A stretch of 62,620 bases of DNA from a virus (Duplodnaviria; Caudoviricetes), in IMG/VR virus record IMGVR_UViG_3300008110_000094, positions 1 through 62,620 of that record; one strand, 5' to 3'. Positions 3,158-48,463 of the stretch are shown here, one piece after another (positions within the stretch are counted from its first letter, which is position 1; the number at the start of each line of letters is the position of its first letter). The notes under the pieces were generated by a model. The model was not told the DNA's origin. It saw only the letters and a list, made by a program, of their open reading frames with translations, and did not search any database. The position numbers and the translations under genes are program-made.

Positions 3158-3171
3158 GAGAGGATCGAGCA

Positions 3172-3468
3172 ATGATTCGAGCCGGATCAGGCGGGGCCGC
3201 TCCTGCCGAAATCGGGCGCGTCACCATCGATGCCGGCGCCCGCCCTTCGGCGTTCGACATCGCGCAAGAGATCGTCGCCACGTCCGCAGACGGCGGCGTG
3301 ACCATCGGACAAGCGCTCAAACTCTTGTTGGCCGTCATGGTCGGCAAAGTCTCGGGCGCTGGCACGTCAACGATCACCTTCCGCGATGTCAACGACACCA
3401 AGGATCGCGTCGTGGCCGATGTGGACACGAACGGCAACCGAACCAACGTGACCAAAGATGTTTCCTAA
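3172..3468 (+). CDS. Hypothetical virion-associated protein
   Basis: RBS and codon usage; beta-rich C-terminus TITFRD...RVVADVDTNGNRT. Confidence 0.7.
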   Translation: MIRAGSGGAAPAEIGRVTIDAGARPSAFDIAQEIVATSADGGVTIGQALKLLLAVMVGKVSGAGTSTITFRDVNDTKDRVVADVDTNGNRTNVTKDVS

Positions 3469-22162: not shown

Positions 22163-25100
22163 ATGGCTCGTTTCCAAGGTATCCCTCTCGACCAAGCCCC
22201 GATCGAGCAGGCCCCGTCGATGGCCGCCCCGCGCGCACCGCGATTCCGGGGGACGCCCCTTGAAGGGCCCAAGCCTGTCGCCGCTCCCGCGCCCGTGGCA
22301 GCACTTGCCCCGCCGCCGATCGCCGAGGCGCCCGCACCCTCCGAAATGCCCGACATCAACCCGCCCACCATGCCGCAGGCTGCACCCCAGCCCGCAGCGG
22401 GCGGCCTTGGCGCGCAGATTATGCGGTTCGGCAAGGATGCCGGCGCCTCTGTCGTGGCTGGCACGGGATCCATCATGCAGTTCCCCGGTCAGGTCTATGG
22501 GCTGGCAACCGGCGATTTCGATACGATGTCCACCCGGGGCGGCGAGGCCGTTCGGCAATTCGGCCAATCCCTCAAATCGCCCGAGCTGCAAGAGAAGGAA
22601 CGCCAAGCCCAGGCCGTCATTGCCGAGGCCGAGAAAGACGGCTTCGGGGCCGAGGTCGGCGCGGTCCTCAAAACCTACCTCAGCGATCCGGTCCTGCTTG
22701 CCAATTTCACGGTCGAACAATTGCCGTCGCTTCTGGCGACGATGGGCTTCGGCAAACTCGCGCAATGGGGCACCCAGGTTGCGGCCAAGGTCGCGCAGCG
22801 CGGTGCTGTATCGGCGGCCACACTGTCCCGCGCCGGGCAGGCCGGGGCCATCACGGGCGGTGCCGCGATGCAGGGCGCATCCGTGGGCGACGAAACCCGC
22901 GATGCAATTCTGCGGCTTCCCGACGCCACTTTTGCGGCCTCGCCCGCGTTCCAGGCCCTTGTCGCGTCCGGTATCGACCCGCAGGCGGCCAAGGAACAGC
23001 TTGCGCTCGAGGGTGCTCGCCTTGCCGGTGCGGCAGGGGCCGGTATCTCCGGGGCCACGGCGACGTTATTGCCGGGCGTGGAGCGCATGGGGTTCGGCCA
23101 AGCGAGCACGCAAGGCATCATCCGGCGCGTCCTGACGGGCGGTGCGGCCGAAGGCTTCCAAGAAGGTCTGGAAGAAGGCGGCGGCCGGTTTGCCCAGAAC
23201 GTCGCTGTCCAACAGATCGATCCCGACCAATCGCTCTTGCAGGGTGTGGGTGCACAGGGCACCATGGGCGCCTTGCCGGGTGCCGTCACGGGCGCTGGCG
23301 TCGCGGCCCTTTCCGGCCGTGAGGATGCGCCTATTACCCCCTCAATCGCGGTCAATGGCGGCCCGCCGGTGCGGGTTGAGCCCACGTTCGACGCTCCCAC
23401 CCAGCCCCCGCCCCCGCCCAACCCGCGCGCAGGTGCCCGCTTCGGGACCGGCGATACCGTCCTGCAGCCCGCCCCCCTCTCGACGCCGCGCTCGCGCAGC
23501 GACCTTGCCGCCGACTTGGCCGACCCGCGCCCGATCGCGGAAATCGACGCCGAGCGCCAGCAGCGGGCCCGTGAGCAGCAAGTTCAACTCGCCAGCCAGT
23601 ACGGCTATCCCGCGATCGGGAGTGCCTTCACGTTCACCTTGCCCGATGGCGAAACCGTCCAGGGCGTCATGGAAGGCGTGCAGCAGACCAGCACCGAAGG
23701 GCTGGCGCGCATCCGGGGCGCCGATGGTCAGATGTACGTCCTCGGGGCCGACGAGTTTACAGTCACCGAAGGAACCGGCGACAAAGCGGACCCCGTGGTT
23801 GTCAAAACCGCCGAGGACGTTGACATCGCGGCCCAGCAGGTTGAGGCCCCGACCCCTGCCCAGGCCAAGGCCGGAAACTACAAGCACGCCCATCTTGAAT
23901 GGGAAGGCTTCGACATCGCCATCGAAACCCCGCAGGGCGGAACGCGCAGCGGCGTGGGCAAGGACGGCAAGCCGTGGTCCGTCACCATGCCCCACCATTA
24001 CGGACGCCTCAAAGGCACGATCGGCGCAGACGGGGATCAGCTCGACATCACGATCGGCCCCAACCCCGAGCAAAACGGCGTTGTGTGGGTGATCGACCAG
24101 ATCGACCCCGATACCGGCAAGTTCGACGAACACAAAATCATGGCCGGGTTCGAGATGGGCGAGGAAGCCGAGCAGGCCTACATCGACGGCTTCTCGGACG
24201 GGCGCGGCATCGACCGGATCGGCGCCGTGGAGCGCATGGATCTTGCCCAATTGCGCCAGTGGATCGCCAACGGCAACACCAAGAAGGCGCTCGCCTACAA
24301 CGGCACGCCCAAGTATCGCGAGTACCGCATCCCGGCGCCAGCGCAGGCCCCCGGCGACAATTACCGTGGCGGCCAGCGCGGGCCCGCCTTCGACCTTCCG
24401 GCCTCGCAGCCGGCGCCTGCGGCTGAGCCTCCGCAAGCGCCCGCCGAGGGTGCGCCGTCCCGTGAAAACGGGGCGGCTGCGTCCCCCGAGCCTGCCCCGG
24501 CGCCCGTCGTGCGCCCCGTGCAGCCGAAACCGCAAACCCTCGCAGAGCCGGAACAGGCCCCCGATTGGTACAAGGAACTGACGGAGACGGGCCGCCGCTT
24601 GCTTTATGTGCGCGCTGGGTTCACGGCAGGCGAGGTCAATCGCCGCGCCAAAGTGACGTGGAACAATATCAGCCCCGAGGTTCGCAAACGGCTGGAAACG
24701 GCAGCCAAAGCGCCGCAGCCGGAAGCCGCACCCCGACCGGCCTACATAGGGAAGGGGCCGGATTTCGCCAGCGGGCGCAATGATGCCCTCGCTGGCAAGC
24801 CGCGCGTCATGCCCACCTACTTCACTAAGCCCTACGGGAAAAACGCAAGGAACTGGTTGCTTGGATGGGATGCCGGTAAGGCCGAGGCCGATCAAACTAA
24901 GGCGTCGGAGGCGCCCCCCGCCGCCCCTCAGAAGGCGCCGCGCCCGAACGACATCTTCTTCAACAACAAGCAAGAACTGGTCGAATACCTGACCGACCGC
25001 TTGCCGAAGGGGTACGAGGTTGACCGTGGCGGTGATGGCCCTGGAAGCCCCGTTCGGCTGTTCGGTCCCGGCGACAAGCTGATCGACGAGTGGGTTGGCA

Positions 25101-28100
25101 GACCCGAACGCGCGCGGATCGACAAGGTGATCGAGCGTGCCAAGAAGGCCGCCGCCGACGCGGCCAAGCCCGCCCCCTCGCCAAAACCCGCCGAACCCGA
25201 TATGCTCCCGGCACAAGCGGAGAATGAAGATGTCGTTCAGCCGAGCGCAGTACCTTCAAGCCCTGCAGGATCAGAACCCGGAGCAAGCGCGGGAACTGCG
25301 CCGCAGCGGGCAGATGTCGAAGCACCTCGCGGACAAGGCGAAGGAGTACGAGGCGACGGAGCGCGCGGCGATGGCGAACGCCGACCCGAGCGACGAGAAC
25401 CTCGCACGGATGATCCGCGAGCAGGTGCAAGCGGAGACGTTCGACCTGCCGATGCAGCGGTAGCCGACAAGCGCCCTGACGCGGAGGTCAAGGGCGAGAA
25501 CCACGTCATTGAAGCCGGTGCGCTGGGCGAAAGCCGCCCGTGGCGCCAGAAGGCACTCGACAATATCCGCGCCATCGAATTGATGCGCCAGATCGAGGCA
25601 GAAGGCCGCCCGGCGACCAAAGCCGAGCAGGCCGAGCTTGCGCTCTATGTCGGCTGGGGCGGTATTCGCAACGCCTTCCCCGATGCCCAAGGGGCTTACG
25701 GCAAGGGCTTCGAGACGATCGGCAAGAAGCTGCGCGAGCTGCTTTCGGACACCGAATACAAGACGGCTCAGCGCTCGATCCAGTACGCGCACTACACCAG
25801 CGAAACGATCGTCCGCGAAATGTGGCGCGCGGCCCAGCAGCTTGGGTTCAAGGGCGGCAAGGTGTTCGAGCCCGGCATGGGGGTGGGCAATTTCGCGGGC
25901 ATGATGCCGACCGACGTTTCGGCGGCCAGCACCTATCACGGGCTCGAGCTTGACCACACGACGGCCCGCATCGCGCGCTTGCTCTATCCGCGCTTCGGCA
26001 TCCGGCAGGACGATTTCACGAAGGCCCCGATCCCCGCCGACACCTACGATCTGGCGATCGGCAACCCGCCCTTTGCCGACGTGGCGATCAAGTCCGATCC
26101 CGCCTACGCCAAGCATGCGTTCCTCCTGCATGACTATTTCTTCGCCAAGTCTCTCGACGCGGTGCGCCCCGGTGGGCTCCTGATGTTCGTCACGTCGGCG
26201 GGCACCCTCAACAAGATCGACACCGCCGCGCGCGAATACATGGCCGACCGGGCGGATTTCGTCGGCGCCATTCGCCTTCCTGGCGATGCCTTCGAGAAGA
26301 ACGCCGGAACCAGCGTCACGACCGACATCATCATTCTGCGCAAGCGGCTCCCCGGCGAGACAGCCGGCAGCAAGGCTTGGACCGAAACCGTCGAACGCAC
26401 CCTGCCCAACAAGGACGGGGCCAAGCAGTCCGGTGCGGTCAATCGCTGGATCTCCGAAAACCCGGAAATGGTGCTCGGCGACGAAGGCTTTTTCGACAAG
26501 CTCTATCCGGGCCGGTACGGCGTGCGATCGAGCGAAGGCGACTTTGCGCCCAAGCTCAAGAAGGCCGTCGATGCGCTCCCCGCCGACGTGATGACGCCGT
26601 GGCAGGAAACCCAGGCCGAACGCGCCGAGGTCGATTTCGGGACCAAAGAGCGCAAGGACGGCTCGTTCTATCTCGACGCCAGCGGTCGCTTGATGCAGAT
26701 GCGCGACCGCGTAGGCCAACCCGTTCCGCAGCGCGGGAAGGGTGCCACGGGCGGCAAGACGGGCGCGGAAATGGCCCGCATCAAGAAGCTGGTCCCGATC
26801 CGCGATGCGCTTCGCGCCGTTCTGGACGCGGACCTGTCCGAAGATTCCGCCAATGCGGCCAAGGCCCGCAAGCGGCTCAATGCCGCCTACGACGAGTTTG
26901 TTGCGGAGTTCGGCCCCATCAACAAGGCCGAACTGTCCGAGCGCCGCCCCAGCGTCGTGCAGCAGGAAAGTGCGCGCTCGGACGCGCGCGAAGAAGCCCG
27001 GTTCAACGGTCTGCCGTTCGACGAAGGGACGTTCGATCCGCGCCAGATGATAGTGCAAGGCAAGTCGCTGGCCGAAATTGCGCGTGCCCGGAACGCGATG
27101 CGCGAGGAATACGCCAAGGCCGGAAAGACGTTCGACGAGGGCACGTTCGATCCCGACGACATGCCCGACATCATCATCGACAAGCGCCCCAACGTCGATG
27201 CGTTCATGGACGACCCAGAGTCCTATCGCTTGCGCGCGATCGAGGACTACAACGACAACACCGGAGAGGCCAAGAAGCGGCCGATCTTCGAGCGCAACAT
27301 CATCACGCGCGAAAAAGAGCCCGAAATCAAATCGGTCAACGACGCCTTGCTCTACGTCCTCAATCGGCGTGGGCGCGTGGCGATCGACGAAATCGCGGCA
27401 GCGGTCAACATCACCGTCCCGCAGGCCATCGAACAGCTTGGCGACCGCATCTTCAAACTGCCCGGCACCCAGGACGCCTACGAAACGCGCGACGCCTATC
27501 TGTCGGGCAACGTCCGCAAGAAGCTGCTTGAGGCCCAGGCGGCGGCCGAGCGCAATCCCGAGTTCAAGCCGAACGTCGAAGCGCTCGAGGCTGTCCAGCC
27601 GACACCGCTTACCCCGTCTGAAATCTCGGCCAATCTCGGCATGCCGTGGTTGCCGACTGACGTGATCGAATCCTTCGGCACGGAAATCGGTCTGACCAAA
27701 CTGAAAGTCGGCTATCTGCCCGCCTTGGCGTCGTGGAACGTCTCGGGCGACGATAGCTCGTCGGCCGCGCGCACCGAATGGGGCACCGCCGAACGCTCGG
27801 CGCCGGAACTGATTTCCGACGCGCTCAATCGGCAAGATCCGAAAATCTACGACGAGGTTCGCCAGCCTGACGGCACGAAAACCCGCGTTCTGAACACCGT
27901 CGCGACCCAGGCCGCCCAAGACAAACTGCAAGCCATCAAGGCCAAGTTCTCGGAATGGGTCTGGTCGGATGCCGCCCGTGCGGATCGTCTGGCGACCCTC
28001 TACAATGACAACTACAACAACCTCGTTGTGCGCCAGTACGACGGCGACTATCTCACCACCCCCGGCATTGCGGCCGGCTGGTCCTGGCGCCCGCACCAGA

Positions 28101-31100
28101 AGCGCGCGATTGCCCGCATCATCCAATCCGGCAACACCTACCTCGCGCACGCGGTCGGGGCGGGCAAAACGTCCGAAATGATCGGCGCCATCATGGAACA
28201 GCGCCGGTTGGGGCTCGTGCGCAAGGCCATGGTCGCGGTCCCGAACCACATGCTCGGCCAGTTCACCAAGGAGTTCTACGAGCAGTATCCCACGGCAAAA
28301 ATCGCGGTTGCCGACGAGCGACAATTCCACACCGACCGCCGCAAGCAGTTCGTGGCAAACGTGGCGAATGACGATCTGGACGCGATCGTCATCACGCACT
28401 CGGCCATGGGGCTTATCCCCGTATCCCCGGAGTTCCAAGACGCGCTGATCCAAGAGCAGATCGACAATTTCCGCGACCTTCTCTCGGAGTTGGACAAAAC
28501 CGACCGCATCACGCGCCGCCGCATCGAGAACGCTATCGAACGGCTCGAGCAGCGCTTGTTGGGCAAGGCCAAGAAGCAGGATCAGGTTTACACGTTCGAG
28601 CAAATGGGCGTCGATCAGCTATTCGTGGACGAGGCCCACCTGTTCCGCAAACTCGACTTTGCCACGAAGATGTCGGGCGTGAAGGGAATCAGCCCCGAGG
28701 GGAGCAAGGCGGCCTTCGATCTGTATGTGAAGGCCCGCTACCTCGAAACCATCAATCCCGGTCGAAGCCTCGTCTTGGCATCGGGTACGCCGGTCACGAA
28801 CACGATGGCCGAGCTTTACACCGTCAGCCGGTACATGCAGCCGCAGGAACTTGCGGAGCGCGGCTTGGCGCATTTCGACGCCTGGGCGGCGGCGTTCGGA
28901 GACATGGCGACGGAGTTGGAGCAGGACGCAGCCGGGGGCTACAAGCCGGTCACGCGCTTTGCGCAGTTCGTCAACATCCCCGAACTGTCGGCCATGGTGC
29001 GGCAGCAGATGGACGTGGTTACGTCCAACCAGCTCGAGCAATACGTCGTGCGCCCGAAGATCAAGGGCGGCCGGCGCGAGCTGCATATGTCCGAAAAGTC
29101 GCCGGAATTGGCCGACTATCAGGAACAGCTTGCCGGTCGCATGAAGGCGATCGCCAACCGGAAAGGGCCGCCGAAGCCGGGCGACGACATCATTCTGTCC
29201 GTCATCAACGACGGGCGCCATGCCGCCATCGACATGCGCTTGGTCAATCCCGACCTTCCGGCCGATCCCACGTCGAAGCTCAGCCGCATGATCGACCGGG
29301 TGTTCGACATCTGGCAGAAAACCAAGCGCCAGCCGTTTCACAAGGCCGAAGGCGGCAAGTACACCGAGAAGCCCGTCGATTACGGCCCGGCCACGCAGAT
29401 GATTTTTTCCAATCTCGGCATCGGCGGATCGCGGCCCTTCAACGTGCACACCTACATCGTCAACGAACTGGCCCGGCGCGGCGTGCCGCGCGCCGAGATT
29501 GCGCAGATCGCGGATTTCAAAACCCACGTCGCCAAGCAACGCCTGTTCAACGACATGAACGAAGGCAAGGTGCGCGTGCTGATCGGCTCGACGGCCAAGA
29601 TGGCAACCGGCGTCAACGCCCAGCGCCGCCTCTACGCGCTGCACAACCTCGACCCCCTCTGGTATCCGGCCGACGACGAGCAGCGCAACGGTCGCGCCTT
29701 GCGTCAGGGCAACATGAACCCGGAAATCGAAATCAACGACTACTCGACCAAGGGCACCTACGACTCAACCATGTGGGGCATGATGGCCCGCAAAGCCGGG
29801 TTCATTCAGGGCTTCTTCGAGGGCGACAAGTCGATCCGGTCGATCGAGGATTTGGGCGAGGCGAGCTTGTACGAGCAGGCGAAGGCGCTCACCACGAACG
29901 ATCCCCGCCTGATCCAGTTGACGGAAACCAAGCAGGAATTGGAGAAGGCGCGGCGCCGCCGTTCCGCGTTCGAGTCCGAGGTCTGGTCGGTCAAAGAGAA
30001 GATCGCGGGCGCCAACCGCTCGATTGCCTACGCCAAGCGCCGTATCCCCGATGTCGAAAAGGACATCGCCCAGCGGATCGAAACCAAGGGCGATGCGTTC
30101 AAGGGAGCCGTCAACAGCAAGAAATTCGACGAGCGCCCCGAGTTCGGCAACGCCTTGCTCGCCCAGATGAACGACATCGCGGAACTGGAAAGTCCGACCA
30201 AGGCCAAGAAAATTGCCGAGGTCGGCGGCTTCCCGGTCATGGCGTCATCGCAAAAGGCTTGGTATGCGAAGCCCGGCGACCCGTTGAAGGTGTCGGTCTA
30301 CCTCGACCGCAACGGCGATTTCCAGACCGACATTGCAGAGTCGGAATCTGCCCTTGGTCTGGTTCGCAGCATCGAATATGCGCTCGGAAAGTTCGAGTCC
30401 GAGCGGGACGGCTATCAGAACAACATCGCGGCGGCCGAGCGCACGATTAAGGACTACACGCCGAAGCTCGAAAAGAAATTCGACGGCGACGAAAAGATCA
30501 AGGAACTGGCGGAAAAGCTCGCCCGTCTCGAAGCCGACATCAATGCGGACGCCAAAGCGCGCGATGCGGCGGCGGCGGCACAGCAAGCGGCGACCAAGGC
30601 CGAGGATGAATCCGGCGAAGAAATGCAGTCGCTGCGCAACACGGGCCGGGCGCGCAACGGCGAGAAGGTCAAACTCGGGGCGCCCATCGTCGATCGCAGC
30701 CTTGATACCCTGCGGGCCGAACTCTACGCGGATCTTCGCGAAGAACTGGACCGGATCGGGCTCACCGACGTTGCCCTGAACCTTCCCGACTATATCGCGC
30801 GCGGGGACGGGGAAGGCGGGGTCCAGTATTCGGCCGGCCGCCAGCGGTTCTGGGGCGACGCGCAAGTGCTGATCGAGATTGCCTTGACCGAAGCGAACGG
30901 CGCCGAGGTTCAAGTCGATCCAAACTCGACTCTGCACCACGAAGCCGTCCATGCCATGAAGCGGCTCAACCTGTTCAGCCCGGCCGAGTGGAAGGTGCTG
31001 GCTGCGCGGTCGGAAGCCGTGTGGGTCAAGGAATACGGCCTGACCGACAAGGACTCCGGCTACAATAACCTGCCCAAAAACCTGATCCTCGAGGAAGGCA

Positions 31101-34100
31101 TCGCCCGAGCCTACGAGGCTTGGAAAGAGGGCCAAGAGGGGGCGATGAAGGGCGGCCTGATCGCGCGGGCCTTTGCCAAGATCAAGCGCTTCATCGAGGC
31201 GATCGGCAACGTGTTCCGGGGCCGGGGCTTCAACACGGTCGAAGGGCTGTTCGAGAAGATCGACGAGGGCAAGATCGGCCGCCGTGGGCGCGAGGCGCGG
31301 CACGCAGATCCCGATGGGCCGCGCAAGAATTTCAAGCCCATGTATGCCGATGTGCCGGGCGAACCGGCGCCGAAGACAATGGCCGAAAATCTCGCACGCG
31401 GACGGGCGGCGATTGCGAAGGTGCTGGCCGAGCAGACCGATGTGCGCCACGCCGCTTGGCGTCCCGAACTCGGCTGGATCGATTTCATCTGGGGCGACGA
31501 CGCCAAAGGCATCGCGCACGCCATCAAGGGGCGGATCGAAAAAGACGGCATGTCCCGTGCCGACGCCGAAACATTGGTGCGCCGCATCCCCGATGTCATC
31601 GCGCGCGGTCGTCTAAACCCATACTTCGTCACGCCAGAGCAGCGCGTTGGACGCACGATTGTCTGGAACAACCAGACGGTTGTGCTGCGATTTGAAATCG
31701 ATGGCGTTGATCGCCGCTGGGTCATCACTTCGCACGAAGGCATGAGCAAAATGCCGAGCGGCGCCAAACAGATTTCGGAACAGCGGGCGGAGGAATTGAT
31801 CGCCGATGCGACGGTGAGGGGTTCGGGCGCCTCGTCCGTTGCTACGCAGGGTGAGCTTCGCGCGAACCTACGTGACCAAGCCAAAGCGGCTGCCAGTGGC
31901 GACACTGGACCCGGTATTTCGACCGGGCTAGGTACGGCTAGCGGTTCCCGCCGAAGCGGCATCTCGCCCACCCAGGGAGCGGCGACGGGCAAAGATATAC
32001 CCGAAACCGACTCCGATGGCAACCCGGACGGCAGCAACGACGACGCCATGTACTCCCTTCTGCCGAAGGACCAAGCCTCGCCGGCAGAGTCCGAGCGCAT
32101 GGCGGAACTGGCCGGGGAAGAAATCGTCTCGGGCACCGAGCGCGATTTCGTCAACGACGCTGGGCTCGTCAAGCGCTGGGTTGTGCATCCCCGCACCATC
32201 GCGGCCTACGACAAGGATTTCGTGCCGGTCTATCGCGCCGCCGTTCGCCAGTTCGAGACGCGCGACGAGTTTGCGGCCGAAATCGCCCGCAAGGCCCAAG
32301 CCTATACGGACCTGACGCCCGAGGACCGCGCCCAGGTCGATAAGCTGCTTGAGCTTGGTCGCCTGGAAGGGACGGTCTATGGCGACGCCGCGCTGAAAGA
32401 CGGCGTGACCAACGATCCCAGCGCCAACGAGGGCCGCACCGAAAACGCCGTCCTCACCAAGCCCGGCGAAACCGTCACGCTCACCGACCGGCAGATCGAG
32501 GGCTACAAGGCTGCACGGGCTTCGATGAACACGGCCTTGGACCTGTTCAAAGCCCAGATCATCGAAGAATGGGGCTACGATCCGACCGAGATCCGCTCGA
32601 GCGCCGACATCCTCGCCCTCATCACCGACGAAACCGGCGACCGGGAAGCCGAGCAGCACAAGGATGCTGCGAAGATCGTGCGCGAAATCGAGCAGGCGCA
32701 GCGCACCGGCTACGTCCCGTTCACGCGCTGGGGCCAGATCGGCATTGCGGTTCGCAGGGCCGATAGCCGCCAGATGGCGCTCGGCATCGACGGCGAAGCC
32801 TCGCGCCCCTACACCACGATCCACTACGAAATGATCGAGGTCGATGGGGCCGTCTCGCGCCTCATGCGCGCCGCCCGGAAGCTGAAAGGCCGCAAGACGG
32901 CCGAACAGCTCGGGCAGTTCCCCGAGGTCAAGGCCCGGTTGGACGCGCTCAAGGCCAAGTACGAGGGCGACCCCGACGTGCGGTTCAGCGTGTTCCAAGT
33001 CGGGGAGGGTGGGCCGCTCGAGCAGGGCGTGAAGCTGTCCGATCTGGACATGCTGGCCGAGGTCGGGCGGATCGACGACAAGGCCTGGGAGCAGGTGCGC
33101 GAGCAGCTTGAAAAAGCGATCAAGATGCGCGGCTTCCGCAAGCATTTCTTTGGCTCGAAGAACCTGCCGGGCTACTCGGTCGATTTCGAGCGCGCGATCG
33201 CCGACTACACGATCGGCATTGCCGGGTATCTGGCCCGTCGAAAGTACGGCTCGATCTGGGATGGTGCAGTGGGCAAGATTCCGACCACCAAGCCCAAGCT
33301 TCGCGAATACGCCCAGAAATACCGGGACTACACGCAATCGCCCCAAGAAGAATTGCAGATGCTGCGGCAGTTGGGGTTCGTGTTCTACCTTACCTCACCC
33401 GCTTCTGCCTTGGTCAACACGACCCAGGTTCCGCTTGTGACGGTGCCCTGGCTATCGCAGTTCGCGCCTGGGCCCAAGGTGATGTACCACGTCACGAAGG
33501 CCTACAAGGACGCCTTCGCGATGACGACGGCAAGCCGTGGCATGGACGTGTTCGACCCCGCCAAAGCGCCGGAGGACGTTCGCGAAGCCTTCCAGAAAGC
33601 GTGGGACGAGGGCTTCTTTGTCCCGTTGAACACCTGGGAAATGATGGGCACCGCGCAGGCCCGCAGCCAAGTGGTTCGGCGTCTGTCGAAAGTCAGCCGC
33701 ACGGCGGTCGATGCCATCGCGCTTGGGTTCACCGTAGCCGAGCGCTTGAACCGGATTGTGACGTGGATGGCGGCCTATCGTTTGGGCAAGCAGGAAACCG
33801 TGCGGCAGTCGGCCCGCACCATCCTTGCGAAGAACGCACTCGCCCGGTCGGACGAGCTGTTGCGCGGCTACACCCCGGAAAAGTTCGCAGGCTTCGCGAT
33901 CGACGAAACCCAATTGCGCATGGGCAAGGTCAACCGTCCCGCGATGATGCGCGGCGCCGGGGCGGCGATCTTCCAGTTCAAGGGTTTCACCATGCAGATG
34001 ATCGAATTGCAGTTCCGCATGGTTCAACAATATGCAGGCCGCCGCCCGAAAGTCGCAGTCGGCGCCATGTGGTTGCTGTTGATGCTGACGGCTGGCATCT

Positions 34101-34933
34101 GGGGCGCCCCGTTCGGAGACGATCTGAAAAACATCTTGGAGTGGATGAAACGCAAGTTTGGCGGGACCGATCTCGACCTTGATACCGAACTGCGCGAGTT
34201 GGTCGTCGAATTGACCGGCTCGCCGGGGCTTGCAGAAGCGTTCTCGCGCGGTACGTCGCGCGCGGCCGGCGTCGATCTGCAGCGCATTGGCATGGGCAAC
34301 GTCCTACCGGATGATGCGCAAGAACTTGGCGGTATTCCGCTTGATCTAGCCTGGGGGCGTCTCTCGCAGGCAATCGAACACGGCAAGCGTGGCAACTGGA
34401 TGCTGGCTTTGAGCGAAATGATGCCCGCGTTCCTCAAGAATCCGATCGTCGCCATGTCGTGGGGCACGGAAGGCGTCAGATCCCAGACATCGGGGCGCGT
34501 TGTTATTCCGCCCGAGAAAGTCACGGCGGGCGATATCGCACAGAAGGCGATTGGCTTCACCCCGGCCGCCATCGCCAACCAACGGGAGTCCGAACGCGCC
34601 CAGACACGGGCGAACACCGCGACCAAAGAGGTCAAGGACCGCTACATCGGGGAACTGGCACGCCTTCGTGCGGACATCCTGCGTGCCGACACCGCCAACG
34701 ACGCGGCCAAGTCTCGGGTGCTCGAGGAACGGTTCGCGCGCACCCTCGACGAGATCCGCGCCTTCAACGAGGGCCGCCCGCTGCACGAAATGGTCATCGT
34801 CAATCCGAAAACCCTCAAGGATCGGATCAAGGAAGAACTGTCCGGGGCGGCGGTGCGCGACAAGAACGCCCCCAAACAGGCCCGCCCGCGCCGCGAGGAA
34901 ATCGAGCGAATCTACGGCGAGCAGCCCCGATAG
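22163..34933 (+). CDS. darB: Giant (4256 aa) DarB-like large polyvalent ejection protein: InPase-like, N6-adenine MTase, SNF2/SF2 helicase, HExxH metallopeptidase-like, PBECR-like nuclease and PLxRFG-like C-terminal regions
   Basis: AGNYK..H....I.IETP.G..RSG....W...M..HYG...GT.GADGD.LD; FEPGMGVGNF and NPPF (26063-26074); AVGAGKT (28151-28171), DEAH (28628-28639), QRNGRALRQGN; HEAVH (30938-30952); WIDFIWG....GIAH; YVPFTRWG. Confidence 0.93.
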   Translation: MARFQGIPLDQAPIEQAPSMAAPRAPRFRGTPLEGPKPVAAPAPVAALAPPPIAEAPAPSEMPDINPPTMPQAAPQPAAGGLGAQIMRFGKDAGASVVAGTGSIMQFPGQVYGLATGDFDTMSTRGGEAVRQFGQSLKSPELQEKERQAQAVIAEAEKDGFGAEVGAVLKTYLSDPVLLANFTVEQLPSLLATMGFGKLAQWGTQVAAKVAQRGAVSAATLSRAGQAGAITGGAAMQGASVGDETRDAILRLPDATFAASPAFQALVASGIDPQAAKEQLALEGARLAGAAGAGISGATATLLPGVERMGFGQASTQGIIRRVLTGGAAEGFQEGLEEGGGRFAQNVAVQQIDPDQSLLQGVGAQGTMGALPGAVTGAGVAALSGREDAPITPSIAVNGGPPVRVEPTFDAPTQPPPPPNPRAGARFGTGDTVLQPAPLSTPRSRSDLAADLADPRPIAEIDAERQQRAREQQVQLASQYGYPAIGSAFTFTLPDGETVQGVMEGVQQTSTEGLARIRGADGQMYVLGADEFTVTEGTGDKADPVVVKTAEDVDIAAQQVEAPTPAQAKAGNYKHAHLEWEGFDIAIETPQGGTRSGVGKDGKPWSVTMPHHYGRLKGTIGADGDQLDITIGPNPEQNGVVWVIDQIDPDTGKFDEHKIMAGFEMGEEAEQAYIDGFSDGRGIDRIGAVERMDLAQLRQWIANGNTKKALAYNGTPKYREYRIPAPAQAPGDNYRGGQRGPAFDLPASQPAPAAEPPQAPAEGAPSRENGAAASPEPAPAPVVRPVQPKPQTLAEPEQAPDWYKELTETGRRLLYVRAGFTAGEVNRRAKVTWNNISPEVRKRLETAAKAPQPEAAPRPAYIGKGPDFASGRNDALAGKPRVMPTYFTKPYGKNARNWLLGWDAGKAEADQTKASEAPPAAPQKAPRPNDIFFNNKQELVEYLTDRLPKGYEVDRGGDGPGSPVRLFGPGDKLIDEWVGRPERARIDKVIERAKKAAADAAKPAPSPKPAEPDMLPAQAENEDVVQPSAVPSSPAGSEPGASAGTAPQRADVEAPRGQGEGVRGDGARGDGERRPERREPRTDDPRAGASGDVRPADAAVADKRPDAEVKGENHVIEAGALGESRPWRQKALDNIRAIELMRQIEAEGRPATKAEQAELALYVGWGGIRNAFPDAQGAYGKGFETIGKKLRELLSDTEYKTAQRSIQYAHYTSETIVREMWRAAQQLGFKGGKVFEPGMGVGNFAGMMPTDVSAASTYHGLELDHTTARIARLLYPRFGIRQDDFTKAPIPADTYDLAIGNPPFADVAIKSDPAYAKHAFLLHDYFFAKSLDAVRPGGLLMFVTSAGTLNKIDTAAREYMADRADFVGAIRLPGDAFEKNAGTSVTTDIIILRKRLPGETAGSKAWTETVERTLPNKDGAKQSGAVNRWISENPEMVLGDEGFFDKLYPGRYGVRSSEGDFAPKLKKAVDALPADVMTPWQETQAERAEVDFGTKERKDGSFYLDASGRLMQMRDRVGQPVPQRGKGATGGKTGAEMARIKKLVPIRDALRAVLDADLSEDSANAAKARKRLNAAYDEFVAEFGPINKAELSERRPSVVQQESARSDAREEARFNGLPFDEGTFDPRQMIVQGKSLAEIARARNAMREEYAKAGKTFDEGTFDPDDMPDIIIDKRPNVDAFMDDPESYRLRAIEDYNDNTGEAKKRPIFERNIITREKEPEIKSVNDALLYVLNRRGRVAIDEIAAAVNITVPQAIEQLGDRIFKLPGTQDAYETRDAYLSGNVRKKLLEAQAAAERNPEFKPNVEALEAVQPTPLTPSEISANLGMPWLPTDVIESFGTEIGLTKLKVGYLPALASWNVSGDDSSSAARTEWGTAERSAPELISDALNRQDPKIYDEVRQPDGTKTRVLNTVATQAAQDKLQAIKAKFSEWVWSDAARADRLATLYNDNYNNLVVRQYDGDYLTTPGIAAGWSWRPHQKRAIARIIQSGNTYLAHAVGAGKTSEMIGAIMEQRRLGLVRKAMVAVPNHMLGQFTKEFYEQYPTAKIAVADERQFHTDRRKQFVANVANDDLDAIVITHSAMGLIPVSPEFQDALIQEQIDNFRDLLSELDKTDRITRRRIENAIERLEQRLLGKAKKQDQVYTFEQMGVDQLFVDEAHLFRKLDFATKMSGVKGISPEGSKAAFDLYVKARYLETINPGRSLVLASGTPVTNTMAELYTVSRYMQPQELAERGLAHFDAWAAAFGDMATELEQDAAGGYKPVTRFAQFVNIPELSAMVRQQMDVVTSNQLEQYVVRPKIKGGRRELHMSEKSPELADYQEQLAGRMKAIANRKGPPKPGDDIILSVINDGRHAAIDMRLVNPDLPADPTSKLSRMIDRVFDIWQKTKRQPFHKAEGGKYTEKPVDYGPATQMIFSNLGIGGSRPFNVHTYIVNELARRGVPRAEIAQIADFKTHVAKQRLFNDMNEGKVRVLIGSTAKMATGVNAQRRLYALHNLDPLWYPADDEQRNGRALRQGNMNPEIEINDYSTKGTYDSTMWGMMARKAGFIQGFFEGDKSIRSIEDLGEASLYEQAKALTTNDPRLIQLTETKQELEKARRRRSAFESEVWSVKEKIAGANRSIAYAKRRIPDVEKDIAQRIETKGDAFKGAVNSKKFDERPEFGNALLAQMNDIAELESPTKAKKIAEVGGFPVMASSQKAWYAKPGDPLKVSVYLDRNGDFQTDIAESESALGLVRSIEYALGKFESERDGYQNNIAAAERTIKDYTPKLEKKFDGDEKIKELAEKLARLEADINADAKARDAAAAAQQAATKAEDESGEEMQSLRNTGRARNGEKVKLGAPIVDRSLDTLRAELYADLREELDRIGLTDVALNLPDYIARGDGEGGVQYSAGRQRFWGDAQVLIEIALTEANGAEVQVDPNSTLHHEAVHAMKRLNLFSPAEWKVLAARSEAVWVKEYGLTDKDSGYNNLPKNLILEEGIARAYEAWKEGQEGAMKGGLIARAFAKIKRFIEAIGNVFRGRGFNTVEGLFEKIDEGKIGRRGREARHADPDGPRKNFKPMYADVPGEPAPKTMAENLARGRAAIAKVLAEQTDVRHAAWRPELGWIDFIWGDDAKGIAHAIKGRIEKDGMSRADAETLVRRIPDVIARGRLNPYFVTPEQRVGRTIVWNNQTVVLRFEIDGVDRRWVITSHEGMSKMPSGAKQISEQRAEELIADATVRGSGASSVATQGELRANLRDQAKAAASGDTGPGISTGLGTASGSRRSGISPTQGAATGKDIPETDSDGNPDGSNDDAMYSLLPKDQASPAESERMAELAGEEIVSGTERDFVNDAGLVKRWVVHPRTIAAYDKDFVPVYRAAVRQFETRDEFAAEIARKAQAYTDLTPEDRAQVDKLLELGRLEGTVYGDAALKDGVTNDPSANEGRTENAVLTKPGETVTLTDRQIEGYKAARASMNTALDLFKAQIIEEWGYDPTEIRSSADILALITDETGDREAEQHKDAAKIVREIEQAQRTGYVPFTRWGQIGIAVRRADSRQMALGIDGEASRPYTTIHYEMIEVDGAVSRLMRAARKLKGRKTAEQLGQFPEVKARLDALKAKYEGDPDVRFSVFQVGEGGPLEQGVKLSDLDMLAEVGRIDDKAWEQVREQLEKAIKMRGFRKHFFGSKNLPGYSVDFERAIADYTIGIAGYLARRKYGSIWDGAVGKIPTTKPKLREYAQKYRDYTQSPQEELQMLRQLGFVFYLTSPASALVNTTQVPLVTVPWLSQFAPGPKVMYHVTKAYKDAFAMTTASRGMDVFDPAKAPEDVREAFQKAWDEGFFVPLNTWEMMGTAQARSQVVRRLSKVSRTAVDAIALGFTVAERLNRIVTWMAAYRLGKQETVRQSARTILAKNALARSDELLRGYTPEKFAGFAIDETQLRMGKVNRPAMMRGAGAAIFQFKGFTMQMIELQFRMVQQYAGRRPKVAVGAMWLLLMLTAGIWGAPFGDDLKNILEWMKRKFGGTDLDLDTELRELVVELTGSPGLAEAFSRGTSRAAGVDLQRIGMGNVLPDDAQELGGIPLDLAWGRLSQAIEHGKRGNWMLALSEMMPAFLKNPIVAMSWGTEGVRSQTSGRVVIPPEKVTAGDIAQKAIGFTPAAIANQRESERAQTRANTATKEVKDRYIGELARLRADILRADTANDAAKSRVLEERFARTLDEIRAFNEGRPLHEMVIVNPKTLKDRIKEELSGAAVRDKNAPKQARPRREEIERIYGEQPR
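25178..25222 (+). promoter_or_regulatory. Putative internal promoter and RBS for the nested ORF
   Basis: TCGCCA(25178-83)-N17-TATGCT(25201-06); GGAG at 25219-22. Confidence 0.5.
25230..25463 (+). CDS. Overprinted 77-aa helical protein nested out of frame in the giant gene (TnpV-like)
   Basis: MSFSRAQYLQALQDQNPEQARELRRSGQMSKHLADKAKEYE...MIREQVQAETFDLP; own RBS and promoter; the main frame here is low-complexity R/G/P/D-rich. Confidence 0.68.
   Translation: MSFSRAQYLQALQDQNPEQARELRRSGQMSKHLADKAKEYEATERAAMANADPSDENLARMIREQVQAETFDLPMQR
31829..31990 (-). ncRNA. Putative antisense-encoded structured RNA inside the giant gene
   Basis: Closing stems GCC-CGTC/GACG-A-GGC and GGGTGGGC/GCTCACCC; hairpins CCGC-TTCG-GCGG, CCCGGT-CGAAAT-ACCGGG, CCAGTG-TCGC-CACTGG; upstream promoter. 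Confidence 0.55.
31994..32022 (-). promoter_or_regulatory. Putative antisense promoter
   Basis: TTGCCA(32022-17)-N17-TATATC(31999-94) on the - strand. Confidence 0.6.
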
Positions 34934-36247: not shown

Positions 36248-36256
36248 GGGAAGGGG

Positions 36257-36328
36257 GTTGTGCGAGGGGACTCGAACCCCCAACCACCGGAGCCACATCC
36301 CGGTGCTCTACCGTTGAGCTACGCACAA
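36257..36328 (-). tRNA. tRNA-His(GTG), CCA not encoded
   Basis: Cloverleaf TTGTGCG TA GCTC-AACGGTA-GAGC A CCGGG-ATGTGGC-TCCGG TGGTT GGGGG-TTCGAGT-CCCCT CGCACAA C. Confidence 0.9.
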
Positions 36329-36334
36329 ACCAGT

Positions 36335-36760
36335 GACGCGGCGACGGGCGGGGCGTCATCCCCGCATTGTGTGATCCGGCTGTCCGTCGCCAAAGCATCC
36401 GTCCGATAACGGGCTACGGTGTGCCTACGCGCGGTCCGGCTGAGAAGTTGCTTTCCCCTTCATTCGGAAGCCGTTTCCGTCGTCACCGGCTGTTCGCCGG
36501 GCGGTACGGGGCACGCCGCCGCGTCGGAGAGCACAGGGTCTTTGGCGTAAACGCCGGGCTTGCCGATAATCTCGATGCCCTGAGTCCGGCCCTGTGCTCG
36601 CCGCCGAAGCGGGAGTAGATGACGCGGGCCACGCCCGAAGGCAGGCGTATCCCAAAAGGGGCCGGGTCGAAGGTTTTTCGTCCACCCCTAGTCTCCGCAA
36701 GATGCGGCGCTTTATGGCTTTAAGCTACGACCGTATCCCTGCCAACCGCCGCCCGCGTCA
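36335..36760 (-). ncRNA. Cluster of three stem-closed putative structured RNAs upstream of the tRNA
   Basis: Perfect terminal inverted repeats 36335-43/36517-25, 36529-38/36590-99, 36620-29/36751-60; C-UUCG-G loops on the - strand; no credible ORF. Confidence 0.55.
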
Positions 36761-36875: not shown

Positions 36876-36947
36876 CAAAGACATTGATTTTGAACGCAAA
36901 AATATTCAAAGACGGCAAGTACGCCGAGATGTAAATCAATGAGTTAG
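36876..36947. other. Probable attP region with two IHF-like sites
   Basis: AATCAATGAGTTA (36934-46) fits WATCAANNNNTTR; inverted near-match at ~36878-90; AT-rich; directly downstream of int. Confidence 0.55.
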
Positions 36948-38020
36948 TCATTCTGGCGGCGCGGTTTGTTTCCAACCGGAAACGCGAGGATCGCAGGCCG
37001 CGCAGCCAGATGCGCTTTCAATTTACGGTACGCGGCGATCGAGAGCCCGTCCGTGCGCGCCGCGTACGCTCGCAACATGGACCGGCCGCCGATGCTGTGC
37101 CCGGTGATGGCCGCCGTCTCGGCGTCCGTGCACCCAGCCTCGAGCAATTGGGTTGTGACCGTTCCCCGGATGTCGTGAAAGTGCCGGTCGGCGTCCAAGA
37201 GCCCGGCTTTGGCAAGGGCCTCTTTCCAGCGCGCATTGAAATTCGGGGTGCCCCAGGGGATTCCTCGCGCCTCGGTCGCAAGGATCGTCTCGGCGCCACT
37301 CTTGCGGCATTCCTCGAGCAGCTCGCCCAATTGCGGAAGCTCCATCACGGGCAGGCGCACGATCGGCGGCGGAACCATTTTGGCGGTTTTCGACGGCGTG
37401 TAGGTGATCCAGCCGTCCCAATAGTCCGACCAGCGCAAGCGGCGCAGATCCCCGAGCCTTGCGGCGGTCAACAGGGCAAGCCTCACCATGCGCGACAGAT
37501 CGGGGCTGGCATGTGCCAGCAATTGCGCCAGCATCGCCTCGTCCCAAATCTTGTCGGCCCGCCGGCCGCCCCTGCCCAGCCGATCGATCCCCTTGGCGTG
37601 GTTGACGGTCACGATCCGGCGTTCATAGGCCCAAGAAAGGACCGTCCCCAAGACGCCTGTGATTTTGTCGGCCTTGGCCGGGTGCGCGGCGTGCTCGTCG
37701 CGCAGGGCGTAGAACTCGGTCCTTATGCGGTGGTCGCAAAGGTTCTCGATCGTCGCCCAACCAAGCCGATCCTCGATGATTCCCAAATAGTAGAAGGTCG
37801 CGGCCTGCCAAGATTGCGAGAGCGCCTTGAACTCGGGCGACTTGGTGTAGGCGGCGTTGATCGACCGAAACCCGTGCCCGGTCGATTGCAGGAAGCGCGA
37901 TGGCTCCTTCGCCTTGCGTTGGTAGATGTATTCTTTGATCGTGCCGTCAGCGAGCTTCTTGCGGACGACGTTTCGACCAGCGGGTTTTTCGGGCTTCAAA
38001 GTCGTCATGGGCGACACCAT
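36944..38020 (-). CDS. int: Tyrosine integrase
   Basis: TAARLGD (R), HFHDIRGT (HxxR), TGH, Y; N-terminal arm-binding region; start uncertain. Confidence 0.93.
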   Translation of the reverse strand: MVSPMTTLKPEKPAGRNVVRKKLADGTIKEYIYQRKAKEPSRFLQSTGHGFRSINAAYTKSPEFKALSQSWQAATFYYLGIIEDRLGWATIENLCDHRIRTEFYALRDEHAAHPAKADKITGVLGTVLSWAYERRIVTVNHAKGIDRLGRGGRRADKIWDEAMLAQLLAHASPDLSRMVRLALLTAARLGDLRRLRWSDYWDGWITYTPSKTAKMVPPPIVRLPVMELPQLGELLEECRKSGAETILATEARGIPWGTPNFNARWKEALAKAGLLDADRHFHDIRGTVTTQLLEAGCTDAETAAITGHSIGGRSMLRAYAARTDGLSIAAYRKLKAHLAARPAILAFPVGNKPRRQND

Positions 38021-38204
38021 TCTTGATCCCGGCAATACGGTCAAGGGCTTGGTCTATCTGGCGGCTGTCCCAGCGCGACGTTCCGGGGAGCGGGGCGGGG
38101 ACAATGCCGAGGTCTATCCAACGATAAAGCGTTGAACTCCCGACCTTTAGATACGCCATCACTTCAAGGCGGCGCATCAGGCGCGAGGGCTCACTTTCCG
38201 CCAC
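37947..38204 (-). CDS. xis: Excisionase (AlpA-like wHTH)
   Basis: EV..YL.V..STLYRWI..G..P.P.....RW; overlaps the int start. Confidence 0.8.
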   Translation of the reverse strand: MAESEPSRLMRRLEVMAYLKVGSSTLYRWIDLGIVPAPLPGTSRWDSRQIDQALDRIAGIKNGVAHDDFEARKTRWSKRRPQEAR

Positions 38205-48134: not shown

Positions 48135-48415
48135 TCGCGCTCCTTGGCCGCCGACTGAGCGGGCGTGCGGGACGGGTGTTTGACGAAAAGATCGACGCGC
48201 CGGTAATTGATCGGCGGCGACAGATCGTTTGCCAGCCGAACGCAGGCGCGATGTTCGATGCTTGTAAAGCCAGGCCCCAGATCGGCGGTCTGCGCAAAAT
48301 CCAAAGGCTTCTCAACCTTCACCAAGGCATCTTCCTCATGCGCAGGCGCGCATTGGCGCGTGTGGCCTTCTGCAATGAGGCAATAGGCGAGGACGCAGAT
48401 TGCAATCGGGTTCAT
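48131..48415 (-). CDS. Hypothetical protein with hydrophobic N-terminus
   Basis: First ORF of the left operon; ATGA-coupled to the nuclease gene. Confidence 0.5.
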   Translation of the reverse strand: MNPIAICVLAYCLIAEGHTRQCAPAHEEDALVKVEKPLDFAQTADLGPGFTSIEHRACVRLANDLSPPINYRRVDLFVKHPSRTPAQSAAKERE

Positions 48416-48423
48416 TCCGATTG

Positions 48424-48463
48424 CGTATCATAACGTAACGCATGTGGTCAACGTTATGTTACG
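48424..48463. promoter_or_regulatory. OL: two operators (48424-40, 48447-63) overlapping a leftward TTGACC -35
   Basis: CGTATCATAACGTAACG and GTCAACGTTATGTTACG. Confidence 0.75.

Follow-up and report, generated by a model that had tools for sequence, protein, structure and literature searches.

The window analysed here, a stretch of 62,620 bp that constitutes a complete virus record with direct terminal repeats, carries a giant open reading frame (ORF) in which a predicted ribonuclease (RNase) domain, PBECR1, is directly followed by a Gly/Ala/Ser/Thr-rich linker. The locus raises the question of whether the opposite strand of this linker encodes an RNA of its own, and what such an RNA might do. 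We propose, with modest confidence, that positions ~31987 to 31799 of the − strand are an independently transcribed, structured RNA gene of ~190 nucleotides (nt), nested in the codons of the PBECR1 linker, whose product serves as an antidote to or a regulator of the RNase. We hold it highly probable that the RNA gene is real, and see about even chances that its function is directed at PBECR1, a view drawn from linkage only. The features at the centre of the argument are the following.

22163–34933, + strand: giant ORF of 4256 amino acids (aa), a DarB-like polyvalent virion protein and host gene of the nested RNA (ORF list, translation)
31457–31742, + strand: PBECR1 (phage BECR-fold predicted RNase) domain, aa 3099–3193 (Pfam PF18809)
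31778–31822, + strand: helix after PBECR1, aa 3206–3220 (..AEELIADA..), overlapped by the 3' end of the RNA (predicted local distance difference test, pLDDT, 85–92 in the model)
31799–31987, − strand: predicted small RNA of ~190 nt (match of RNA model R1 at 31990–31795, 216 bits)

An initial annotation made from the sequence had described a promoter-driven, multibranched antisense RNA at 31829–32022, a stretch that corresponds to aa 3222–3286 directly after the PBECR1 domain and its helix. The promoter-like pair that it reported on the − strand, TTGCCA (32022–32017) and TATATC (31999–31994) separated by 17 nt, is confirmed by the sequence, and all the helices that it named are present where it had placed them. 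The minimum free energy structure of the 125-nt core contains every one of them except the UUCG hairpin, which is included in the consensus fold of two sequences, the window and its relative L010. L010 is a 61.8-kb IMG/VR phage whose corresponding cassette is ~35% identical in protein, with 58% nt identity in the element. The extent needed correction: the element is real at 31829–32022 but longer than described, as it reaches 31799 and includes an outer helix and a 3' hairpin. Its 5' end is placed from the −10 hexamer, and its 3' end from where the outer helix and the RNA contigs stop. Its parts are listed below in 5' to 3' order of the RNA.

32022–32017, − strand: −35 hexamer TTGCCA (TTG in register with a 17-nt spacer in L010, L002, L009, L004, L005, L094 and L112)
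31999–31994, − strand: −10 hexamer TATATC (GTATAT in the alphaproteobacterial register), read from the sequence
31986–31980, − strand: 5' arm of the outer helix, GUCGCCG, pairing with 31805–31799 (6 of 7 pairs doubly changed across the family)
31979–31975, − strand: junction strand CUCCC, with the preceding G GCUCCC (invariant in the eight-member alignment, the window and L010)
31973–31849, − strand: P1 domain, a multibranch expansion in the window (consensus fold with L010)
31973–31966/31856–31849, − strand: closing helix of P1, GGGUGGGC/GCUCACCC, with one G-U pair
31959–31948, − strand: UUCG hairpin of P1, CCGC-UUCG-GCGG
31947–31943/31868–31864, − strand: GAACC/GGUUC helix of P1
31928–31909, − strand: hairpin of P1 with loop CGAAAU (CCCGGU-CGAAAU-ACCGGG at 31927–31910)
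31908–31893, − strand: hairpin of P1, CCAGUG/CACUGG
31848–31842, − strand: strand UGCGUAG, near-invariant, with GCGUAG invariant (alignments)
31848–31807, − strand: 3' hairpin domain, UGCG...AACCC...CGCA (10 of 10 pairs doubly changed in the family-wide alignment)
31805–31799, − strand: 3' arm of the outer helix, CGGCGAU (RNA contigs stop at 31800–31802 in three of four runs; U7 follows the same arm in L112)

Comparison with relatives shows the predicted fold to be a three-way junction, in which the outer helix, a variable P1 and the 3' hairpin are joined by the invariant strands GCUCCC and GCGUAG. A conserved small ORF inside the RNA was considered as well and rejected, since the AUG at ~31947 of the window is not kept in L010.

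Comparison with relatives supports the core of the initial annotation. The element lies antisense and directly after PBECR1 in 12 of 13 loci, counted as distinct PBECR1 loci with downstream sequence; L096 is cut by the contig end, and L099, which translates identically to L098, was searched only with R1. The loci that carry it come from alphaproteobacterial phages and prophages, Pasteurellaceae, Sutterella and an Acinetobacter phage. Model R1, made from the window and L010, has one match in the whole 62.6-kb window, so that the element is single copy there. R1 also finds a 100-nt version in L002, from an alphaproteobacterial metagenome-assembled genome (30.9 bits, E 1e-6), and a 94-nt version in L009 (17.3 bits, E 0.005), the next best match in 149 kb scoring 10.4 bits. 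Both are antisense and right after PBECR1, with a simple hairpin in place of the large P1. A second PBECR1 subfamily has the same anchors, GCUCCC, ~30 nt and GCGUAG, and the same architecture. In the small members P1 is a single hairpin of 29–31 nt, and the outer helix forms 7 of 7 pairs in L002, L009, L005 and L095, 6 of 7 in L004 and L097, and, by eye, 7 pairs with one bulge in L094; in L098 it is doubtful.

Model R2, built from eight small members with the structure set by hand, finds a ninth member, L003 (29.4 bits, E 3e-8), and nothing else above 10.8 bits in 228 kb. With filters off, it also finds the Acinetobacter phage vB_AbaM_ABMM1 (L112, OQ471969.1) at 61.5 bits. Model R3, restricted to six members of the second subfamily and likewise structured by hand, finds L009, L002 and L003 (26–27 bits, E 4e-7 to 1e-6) and L112 (66.5 bits), with nothing further at E ≤ 1 in 126 kb. 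Because L002 and L009 are matched from both sides, and because anchors and promoter register are shared, we unite the two subfamilies into one family of predicted RNAs of ~86–190 nt, always antisense and directly 3' of PBECR1. Conversely, no model matched L011, a relative of L010 whose slot is occupied by a different domain, or five polyvalent loci that lack PBECR1. Aligning the eight small members with MAFFT and folding them with RNAalifold missed the outer helix and paired the two invariant strands with each other instead; since neither strand varies, a GCUCCC–GCGUAG pairing is not readable from covariation.

Rfam 15 has no match to the family. A gathering scan of the window with Rfam 15 returned tRNA only, an E-value scan of 31600–32250 gave one row of 11.5 bits (E 8.5), and scans of ten member loci gave nothing at the elements. 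Blastn against phages produced no match, and tblastn against phage and plasmid records covered the domain core only. Peptide scans of viral contigs with P0002, A2 and P0100 yielded nothing new, metagenome scans for homologous DNA nothing beyond the contig of L010 itself, and DNA pattern scans chance matches and that same contig only. Genome samples gave 2 of 401 genomes for the class, 1 of 6 for each of two orders and, by pattern, 1 of 401 for the phylum, all of which were known already. In the Acinetobacter phage, within L112 928–2425, the PBECR1-bearing coding sequence (CDS) is annotated as a 'tetratricopeptide repeat protein', and an overlapping 'hypothetical protein' CDS (locus 1835–2425) overlies the RNA gene, possibly as an artefact of annotation. 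The same domain is present in five A. baumannii records of a plasmid collection (H29–H33).

The central claim of the initial annotation, that the antisense RNA is promoter-driven, is upheld by relatives that keep the −35 and −10 hexamers in register although their spacers are wholly different. All four members of the first subfamily have TAYATY 7 nt before the outer helix. When both strands of the four first-subfamily loci are scanned, the pattern TTGYYN-N17-TAYATY occurs four times in 156,292 nt, and all four sites lie exactly 36 nt before the anchor, with unrelated spacers. Matches to a sigma-70-type promoter amount to 9/12 in the window and up to 10/12 in relatives. Across the family the register is kept in 10 of 12 members, 8 of which were flagged automatically (for example TTGACA-17-TACATT, TTGACG-17-TATATT and TTGAAA-17-TATTAT), while TTGTTT-17-TACATT in L010 and TTGACT-16-CATTAT in L097 are near-matches. 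The consensus of rhizobial promoters is CTTGAC-N17-CTATAT. On the coding strand the −10 falls on Asp/Asn-Ile/Val codons, GAT ATA in the window and AAT GTA or AAT ATA in relatives; ATA is a rare codon, with a relative weight of 0.01 in the giant gene. Comparison of the loci thus shows a predicted sigma-70-type promoter that belongs to the RNA itself.

A putative terminator points to the same strand. U7 directly follows the 3' arm of the outer helix on the − strand of L112, and L004 and L094 have a further hairpin with a U5–6 run somewhat downstream. Paired cells comprise 117 Watson-Crick, 8 G-U and 0 A-C combinations, a count skewed by the fact that the antisense strand was the one folded to obtain the structure. 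The conservation of promoter and putative terminator makes it quite likely that the RNA is made from the − strand.

The helices also covary. The linker of L010 has hairpins at positions matching those of the window, with different stem sequences. RNAalifold of window 31770–32010 against L010 gave 46 pairs on the − strand, 17 of them doubly changed and none broken, and 47 pairs on the + strand, with 16 doubly changed and none broken. The helix said to close the multibranch does covary, with 5 of its 7 pairs doubly changed in L010, as are 5 of the 6 pairs of the hairpin at 31908–31893. The consensus energy of the − strand was −62.9, against −34.2 ± 4.7 in 300 column shuffles (z −6.05, 0/300), and the number of double changes was equalled by 3 and 5 of 300 column shuffles for the two strands. 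The same test on the PBECR1 codons, used as a control, gave z +1.12 to −0.66, and a codon-based alignment of helix and linker gave z −3.49 and −4.58 (0/150). Over the family, in a ten-row alignment that includes one junk partial row, pairing extends to 81.5% of 233 cells (shuffled 58.1 ± 2.4, 0/500) and 23 of 26 pairs are doubly changed (shuffled 14.4 ± 2.1, 0/500), with 37–46% paired in slid controls. A four-sequence alignment of large and small forms has 97.7% of 128 cells paired (shuffled 82.2 ± 2.9, 0/500) and 19 of 46 pairs doubly changed (shuffled 9.3 ± 2.1, 0/500), with 34–51% in slid controls; both of these alignments were fitted to their own models, which favours the structure.

Constraint on the codons agrees with this picture. 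At residues identical between the window and L010, codons are identical in 20 of 50 cases in the PBECR1 domain (21.8 expected), in 8 of 8 in the helix (3.7 expected, P = 0.002) and in 17 of 28 in the linker (11.0 expected, P = 0.015), and the shared codons include the rare CTA, CGT, GCT, ATT and GGA. The strand CUACGCA (UGCGUAG in the RNA) encodes A-T-Q in the window (GCT ACG CAG) and P-Y-A in L009 (CCC TAC GCA), where it is read in another frame. In L095 the PBECR1 ORF (172 aa) stops 36 nt before the element, and in L112 the PBECR1 CDS (313 aa) ends at locus position 1869 while the element spans 1860–1964. Because the frame changes in L009 and the elements of L095 and L112 lie past the PBECR1 stop, conservation of the element is independent of the protein. 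The conserved residues of the linker are those on the invariant strands of the RNA and on its promoter, so that the RNA, not the protein, appears to dictate them. Among distant PBECR1 proteins, the short linker motifs that are kept are ..AE..IADA.., ATQ, and GAAT followed by N-I/V. The description of the linker as filler protein fits well, since it is predicted to be disordered and its few conserved residues sit on the invariant strands of the RNA.

Positions 31500–32300 are present in 14 DNA runs and, in part, in 6 metatranscriptome runs, which belong to 5 studies. Four of these RNA runs, each of a different study (2017 to 2022), contain one contig apiece of 164–175 nt inside the element, with 0 differences.

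31802–31976, strand not given: contig of run X15, 175 nt, depth 17
31813–31976, strand not given: contig of run X17, 164 nt, depth 8.1
31800–31967, strand not given: contig of run X19, 169 nt (168 aligned), depth 2
31802–31967, strand not given: contig of run X20, 166 nt, depth 2.9

The rest of the 801 bases is uncovered, save for a lower-depth X15 contig from 32023 and an unrelated 35-nt piece of X20; missing contig cover in 31500–32300 is not itself evidence of silence. Runs X16 and X18 have a similar share of sampled words and are not counted as evidence. A discrete RNA from the region of the element is thus present in four metatranscriptomes, and a discrete RNA of 31800–31976 exists in nature. 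That the same piece of 165–175 nt ends at the outer helix in four studies is consistent with the trace of a stable small RNA.

Single-sequence statistics are by comparison unremarkable. Its observation of atypical codons was accurate, as the linker has a codon index of 0.44 (gene 0.71 ± 0.09) and a GC content at third codon positions (GC3) of 0.615 (gene 0.80 ± 0.08), and only 1 of 65 windows of the gene scores lower. Folding the linker against synonymous-codon shuffles, however, failed to set it apart, with z −1.86 on the − strand (13/300) and z −2.12 on the + strand (5/300). Against dinucleotide shuffles, the 194-nt − strand gave z −1.92 (6/200 equal) and the + strand z −2.52 (3/200), and the hand-cut 125-nt core gave z −1.52 to −2.12 on the − strand and −2.37 to −2.95 on the + strand. 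Elsewhere in the gene, − strand z values ≤ −1.9 occur in 5 of 65 windows of 195 nt, values ≤ −2.12 in 7 of 201 windows of 126 nt, and 6 to 8 of 42 windows of 300 nt equal the linker in folding. The window has 9 promoter-like sites of equal quality where shuffles give 12.7 ± 3.5, a chance frequency, and the promoter scan of the window lists none at the element. Perfect hairpins are not enriched relative to codon permutations (2 seen, 0.86 expected; 2 reached in 24 of 100 shuffles). With 3–10% of the gene's other windows as good, the folding argument drawn from one sequence does not hold. An early reading of these tests as an ordinary linker without support for an RNA was overturned by the comparative data. 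A weak early sign lay in the 300 nt after PBECR1 in L002, L003, L004, L005, L010, L094, L097 and the window, where mild excess folding is seen on both strands (z +0.02 to −2.16 against codon permutations, mean ~−1.3).

Some further observations were made in the same scans. The only other region of such atypical codons is a second disordered linker at 25133–25522 (aa ~1000–1120, before the methylase module), whose GC3 (0.38–0.5) and codon index (0.34–0.5) lie below those of the RNA-bearing linker. Two windows there, at 25313 (− strand z −2.72) and 25376 (+ strand z −3.22), rank near the negative extreme of the 201 in the fold scan. Models R1 and R2 have no match in this linker, which might hide another nested element. 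The most negative sense-strand z values among the 126-nt windows of the gene are at 34196 (−3.81), 32054 (−3.37) and 32873 (−3.16). The initial annotation had also pointed to a recurrence of the UUCG 12-mer CCGCTTCGGCGG at 36601–36612. The second copy exists, but its standing as a related feature is not supported: 4.9% of window positions carry a recurring 12-mer and no model matches there, for which reasons we regard it as coincidence. It sits between tRNA-His and the integrase.

The linker and its RNA travel together with PBECR1. Two close relatives, P0004 and P0005, are 95–98% identical in the flanks and align to aa 2951–3064 and again from aa 3282/3294 on, not between. P0004, P0005 and P0006 have other domains between the conserved borders PRKNFKPMYAD and MYSLLPKDQ. 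As the relatives match the flanks only and carry other domains between them, PBECR1 and the linker form one exchangeable cassette.

31355–32041, + strand: swappable cassette, aa ~3065–3293, comprising PBECR1, the helix and the RNA-bearing linker (alignment of relatives)

As far as the sequences tell, the predicted RNA is exchanged with PBECR1 as one cassette. The effector slot 31355–32041 is bounded by PRKNFKPMYAD and MYSLLPKDQASPAESERMAEL, and its fill in P0004 is an ART-type domain according to a precomputed Pfam list. Two other proteins are of interest for the linker. P0100 (218 aa) is a free-standing ORF with two tandem linker modules and the last ~12 PBECR1 residues between them, which may represent two tandem RNA genes or a deleted domain. 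P0061 (242 aa) has a linker nearly identical to that of the window and a strongly diverged PBECR1 part, which points to a mosaic break point where the RNA region begins. When we asked how many of 44 pairs each protein sequence would force to break, the numbers were 1 for P0061, 1 for P0100, 6 for P0117, 4 for P0103 (plus 13 in gaps) and 1 for P0008 (plus 24 in gaps).

Pfam domains of the 4256-aa ORF are InPase, PBECR1, ResIII, an Eco57I-type methylase and Helicase_C (SNF2-type helicase), and the ORF matches the PHROG 'DarB-like antirestriction' with 1894 bits. An HExxH motif is visible in its translation, without implying an MPTase assignment. On the + strand it follows the terminase, portal, major head and tail spike genes. 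Given this mix of domains and the DarB-like PHROG match, it is a polyvalent protein in the sense of the passages considered here of Iyer et al. 2017 (PMC5512222), with several unrelated effector or enzyme domains, structural gene neighbours and mosaic cassette exchange. The PBECR1 assignment rests on a PF18809 match of 28.6 bits in the protein (cut-off 27.6) and 34.9 bits in a six-frame search. An AlphaFold model of the segment gives pLDDT 83–96 for PBECR1 and the following helix (segment residues 1–156) and 39–55 for the linker, aa 3222–3286, which is thus predicted to be disordered. A fold search against the PDB produced weak rows for PBECR1, the best being a chain of a contact-dependent growth inhibition (CDI) toxin complex (7m5f_C, E 0.021) and another a chain of a toxin-antitoxin module. 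The phage is temperate, with an integrase at 36944–38044 (− strand) beside tRNA-His at 36255–36328, likely its attachment region. A 92-nt tRNA-Cys-like gene is called at 48338–48429 on the + strand.

What might the RNA do? PBECR1 is a predicted injected RNase in the passages at hand of Iyer et al. 2017 (PMC5512222). Strict linkage to and joint transfer with PBECR1, its only constant neighbour, are hallmarks of toxin–protector pairs and lead us to propose such a pairing, and the retention of invariant unpaired strands from Alphaproteobacteria to Acinetobacter favours a specific ligand. An antidote to or regulator of the RNase is our best guess from the sequences. The initial annotation had suggested an RNA antitoxin or decoy for the BECR-type RNase, or else an antisense silencer acting in the lysogen. 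By one route, the RNA would bind the PBECR1 domain as a pseudo-substrate, in the manner of a type III antitoxin. By another, it would pair with the mRNA just behind the RNase codons, in the manner of a 3'-overlapping type I antitoxin. By either route, leaky expression of the RNase in a lysogen would be rendered harmless. A wider and rather speculative extension, which we hold to be unlikely, is that the effector cassettes in polyvalent proteins come with an RNA immunity gene of their own, encoded opposite the linker codons, the RNA binding the RNase, protecting the lysogen and excluding superinfection. A constitutive RNA of this sort would protect the lysogen both from its own leaky RNase and from the RNase of superinfecting relatives, and would, if true, explain why the only conserved residues of the linker are dictated by the RNA.

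Besides the favourable bias of the pair counts mentioned above, several observations weigh against an RNA gene with this role. PBECR1 is a predicted RNase only, by fold and by family in the sources considered, and an injected effector made late in lytic growth has no obvious need of an antidote. L098 and L003 have no convincing promoter, and neither the sequence nor a scan of the window revealed a terminator after the element. The PBECR1 locus of a Helicobacter phage reached only 12.2 bits with R2, with no convincing element, and the models do not bridge the family completely, as R2 and R3 miss the window and L010 and R1 misses the second subfamily. The fold alone is unexceptional in the window, the sense strand being equal or better, and the consensus z is equal on both strands (−6.05 and −6.04, 0/300 each). 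The RNA contigs define neither strand nor exact ends, and RNA libraries may contain DNA.

Among the alternatives, a generic cis-antisense silencer survives best, and we judge it improbable. Such an RNA would pair with the late polyvalent mRNA and stop read-through of the structural operon in lysogens, without any relation to the RNase. The temperate phage with its integrase beside tRNA-His, the RNA's own constitutive-looking promoter and the presence of the RNA without the surrounding gene in three RNA libraries would all suit this role. However, the element is tied to PBECR1 and not to the gene: relatives with other domains lack the region, L011 gives no match, and the element follows PBECR1 into different proteins, such as the 172-aa ORF of L095 and the 313-aa CDS of L112. 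Furthermore, the invariant unpaired strands and covarying helices exceed what simple antisense pairing needs.

A trans-acting 'moron' small RNA that regulates host mRNAs, for instance by way of the invariant CU-rich strand, and is no more than a passenger of the PBECR1 cassette would account for an abundant and discrete RNA in the environment, and the invariant single strands GCUCCC and GCGUAG could be its seed regions. This possibility is doubtful, because the hosts span Alphaproteobacteria, Pasteurellaceae and Acinetobacter, among which a common host target is not obvious, and because in many loci the element keeps its place relative to PBECR1 with nucleotide precision.

Alternatively, the conserved structure could belong to the giant mRNA itself, where it would mark a pause between domains, stabilise the message or direct its processing, with the contigs representing a nuclease-resistant mRNA fragment. 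The sense strand folds equally well or better in single-sequence tests, the consensus z does not distinguish the strands, the contigs carry no strand, and two hairpins have GNRA loops on the + strand. Nonetheless, this explanation is very unlikely in view of −35 and −10 hexamers conserved on the − strand with unrelated spacers, the U7 tail after the 3' arm of L112 on that strand, and cUUCGg loops in three hairpins there. In addition, the hairpin at 31928–31909 forms 7 pairs on the − strand in the window and L010, whereas an A-C interrupts it on the + strand, and in L095 and L112 the element is retained beyond the stop codon.

A signal at the DNA level, in which hairpins in single-stranded or cruciform DNA form a recombination joint for the exchange of effector cassettes, would place the element where it is, at the 3' end of a cassette swapped in close relatives of two lineages. 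Yet the borders of the cassette lie outside the element (~32042 in the window and ~150 nt beyond it in L010), other cassettes of the same slot lack the element, and promoter, terminator and RNA contigs are left unexplained, so that we give this idea hardly any weight. That nothing functional is present, the Gly/Ala/Ser/Thr/Pro codons of the linker being self-complementary by chance, would agree with the ordinary single-sequence statistics and unenriched perfect hairpins, but it is contradicted by the comparative and expression evidence and is scarcely credible.

The nested RNA gene with a putative PBECR1-directed role thus stands as our preferred reading, and several consequences follow. It defines a new conserved and expressed small-RNA family without an Rfam 15 entry, and a gene within a gene, as the RNA is nested in the codons of a disordered linker and is invisible to annotators. 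PBECR1, a predicted injected RNase of unknown target, gains its first strictly linked partner, and its biology becomes testable, the more so as the family is present in a cultured phage, Acinetobacter phage vB_AbaM_ABMM1. The case also holds a lesson for genome scanning, since single-sequence fold and promoter statistics would dismiss a real element that relatives and RNA libraries revealed.

How does this RNA compare with known systems? Lambda OOP, P22 sar and P1 c4 are short, promoter-driven antisense RNAs of temperate phages that act on regulatory genes. They differ from the present family in that they are not tied to an effector domain, and Rfam scans of the family found nothing. Among toxin-antitoxin (TA) systems, the type III toxin ToxN has a Kid-like fold, and PBECR1, with its BECR fold, hence differs from it.

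Type III systems such as ToxIN and TenpIN (PMC8860590, PMC5086642), to which the initial annotation had drawn its analogy, resemble the present arrangement in that an endoribonuclease, here the predicted RNase PBECR1, lies beside a noncoding RNA of conserved fold. Their antitoxins, however, are tandem repeats located upstream on the strand of the toxin and processed by it, whereas the RNA of the window is single, downstream, on the opposite strand and under its own promoter. Type I systems with a 3'-overlapping antisense RNA, such as bsrG/SR4 of the B. subtilis SPbeta prophage (PMC3834814), share a convergent small structured RNA with its own promoter that overlaps the 3' part of the message for a harmful product, is prophage-borne and is inherited with its partner as a unit. 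The geometry here is indeed that of an antisense RNA overlapping a toxin mRNA, the strand being assigned from promoter and terminator. In contrast to type I systems, the partner in the window is a predicted RNase domain of ~100 aa in a 4256-aa protein and not a small hydrophobic or membrane peptide. The family also departs from bsrG/SR4 in that the RNA lies wholly inside the coding sequence in most members and neutralisation is only proposed.

The concept of polyvalent proteins (Iyer, Burroughs, Anand, de Souza and Aravind 2017, PMC5512222) fits the host protein in its many effector domains, virion association and mosaic exchange. The passages of that article considered here mention no nested RNA gene, and the word 'linker' is absent from the whole paper. 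Polymorphic toxin-immunity cassettes, including those with BECR toxins (2026 bioRxiv preprint 10.64898/2026.08.28.747851), are alike in that a toxin and its cognate protector move together, and unlike in that the known immunity factors are proteins from genes that follow the toxin on its own strand, whereas the partner here is an antisense RNA (10.64898/2026.08.28.747851). The consulted text of this preprint has 0 occurrences of 'antisense' and of 'RNA antitoxin'. Within the limited literature collection covered, in the parts seen, no RNA partner of PBECR domains and no nested RNA in polyvalent proteins is described. With no small peptide toxin, no repeat array and a location on the opposite strand, the RNA fits neither the type I nor the type III definition. 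Therefore, if the RNA is an antidote, PBECR1 and its partner would represent a TA arrangement outside both type I and type III.

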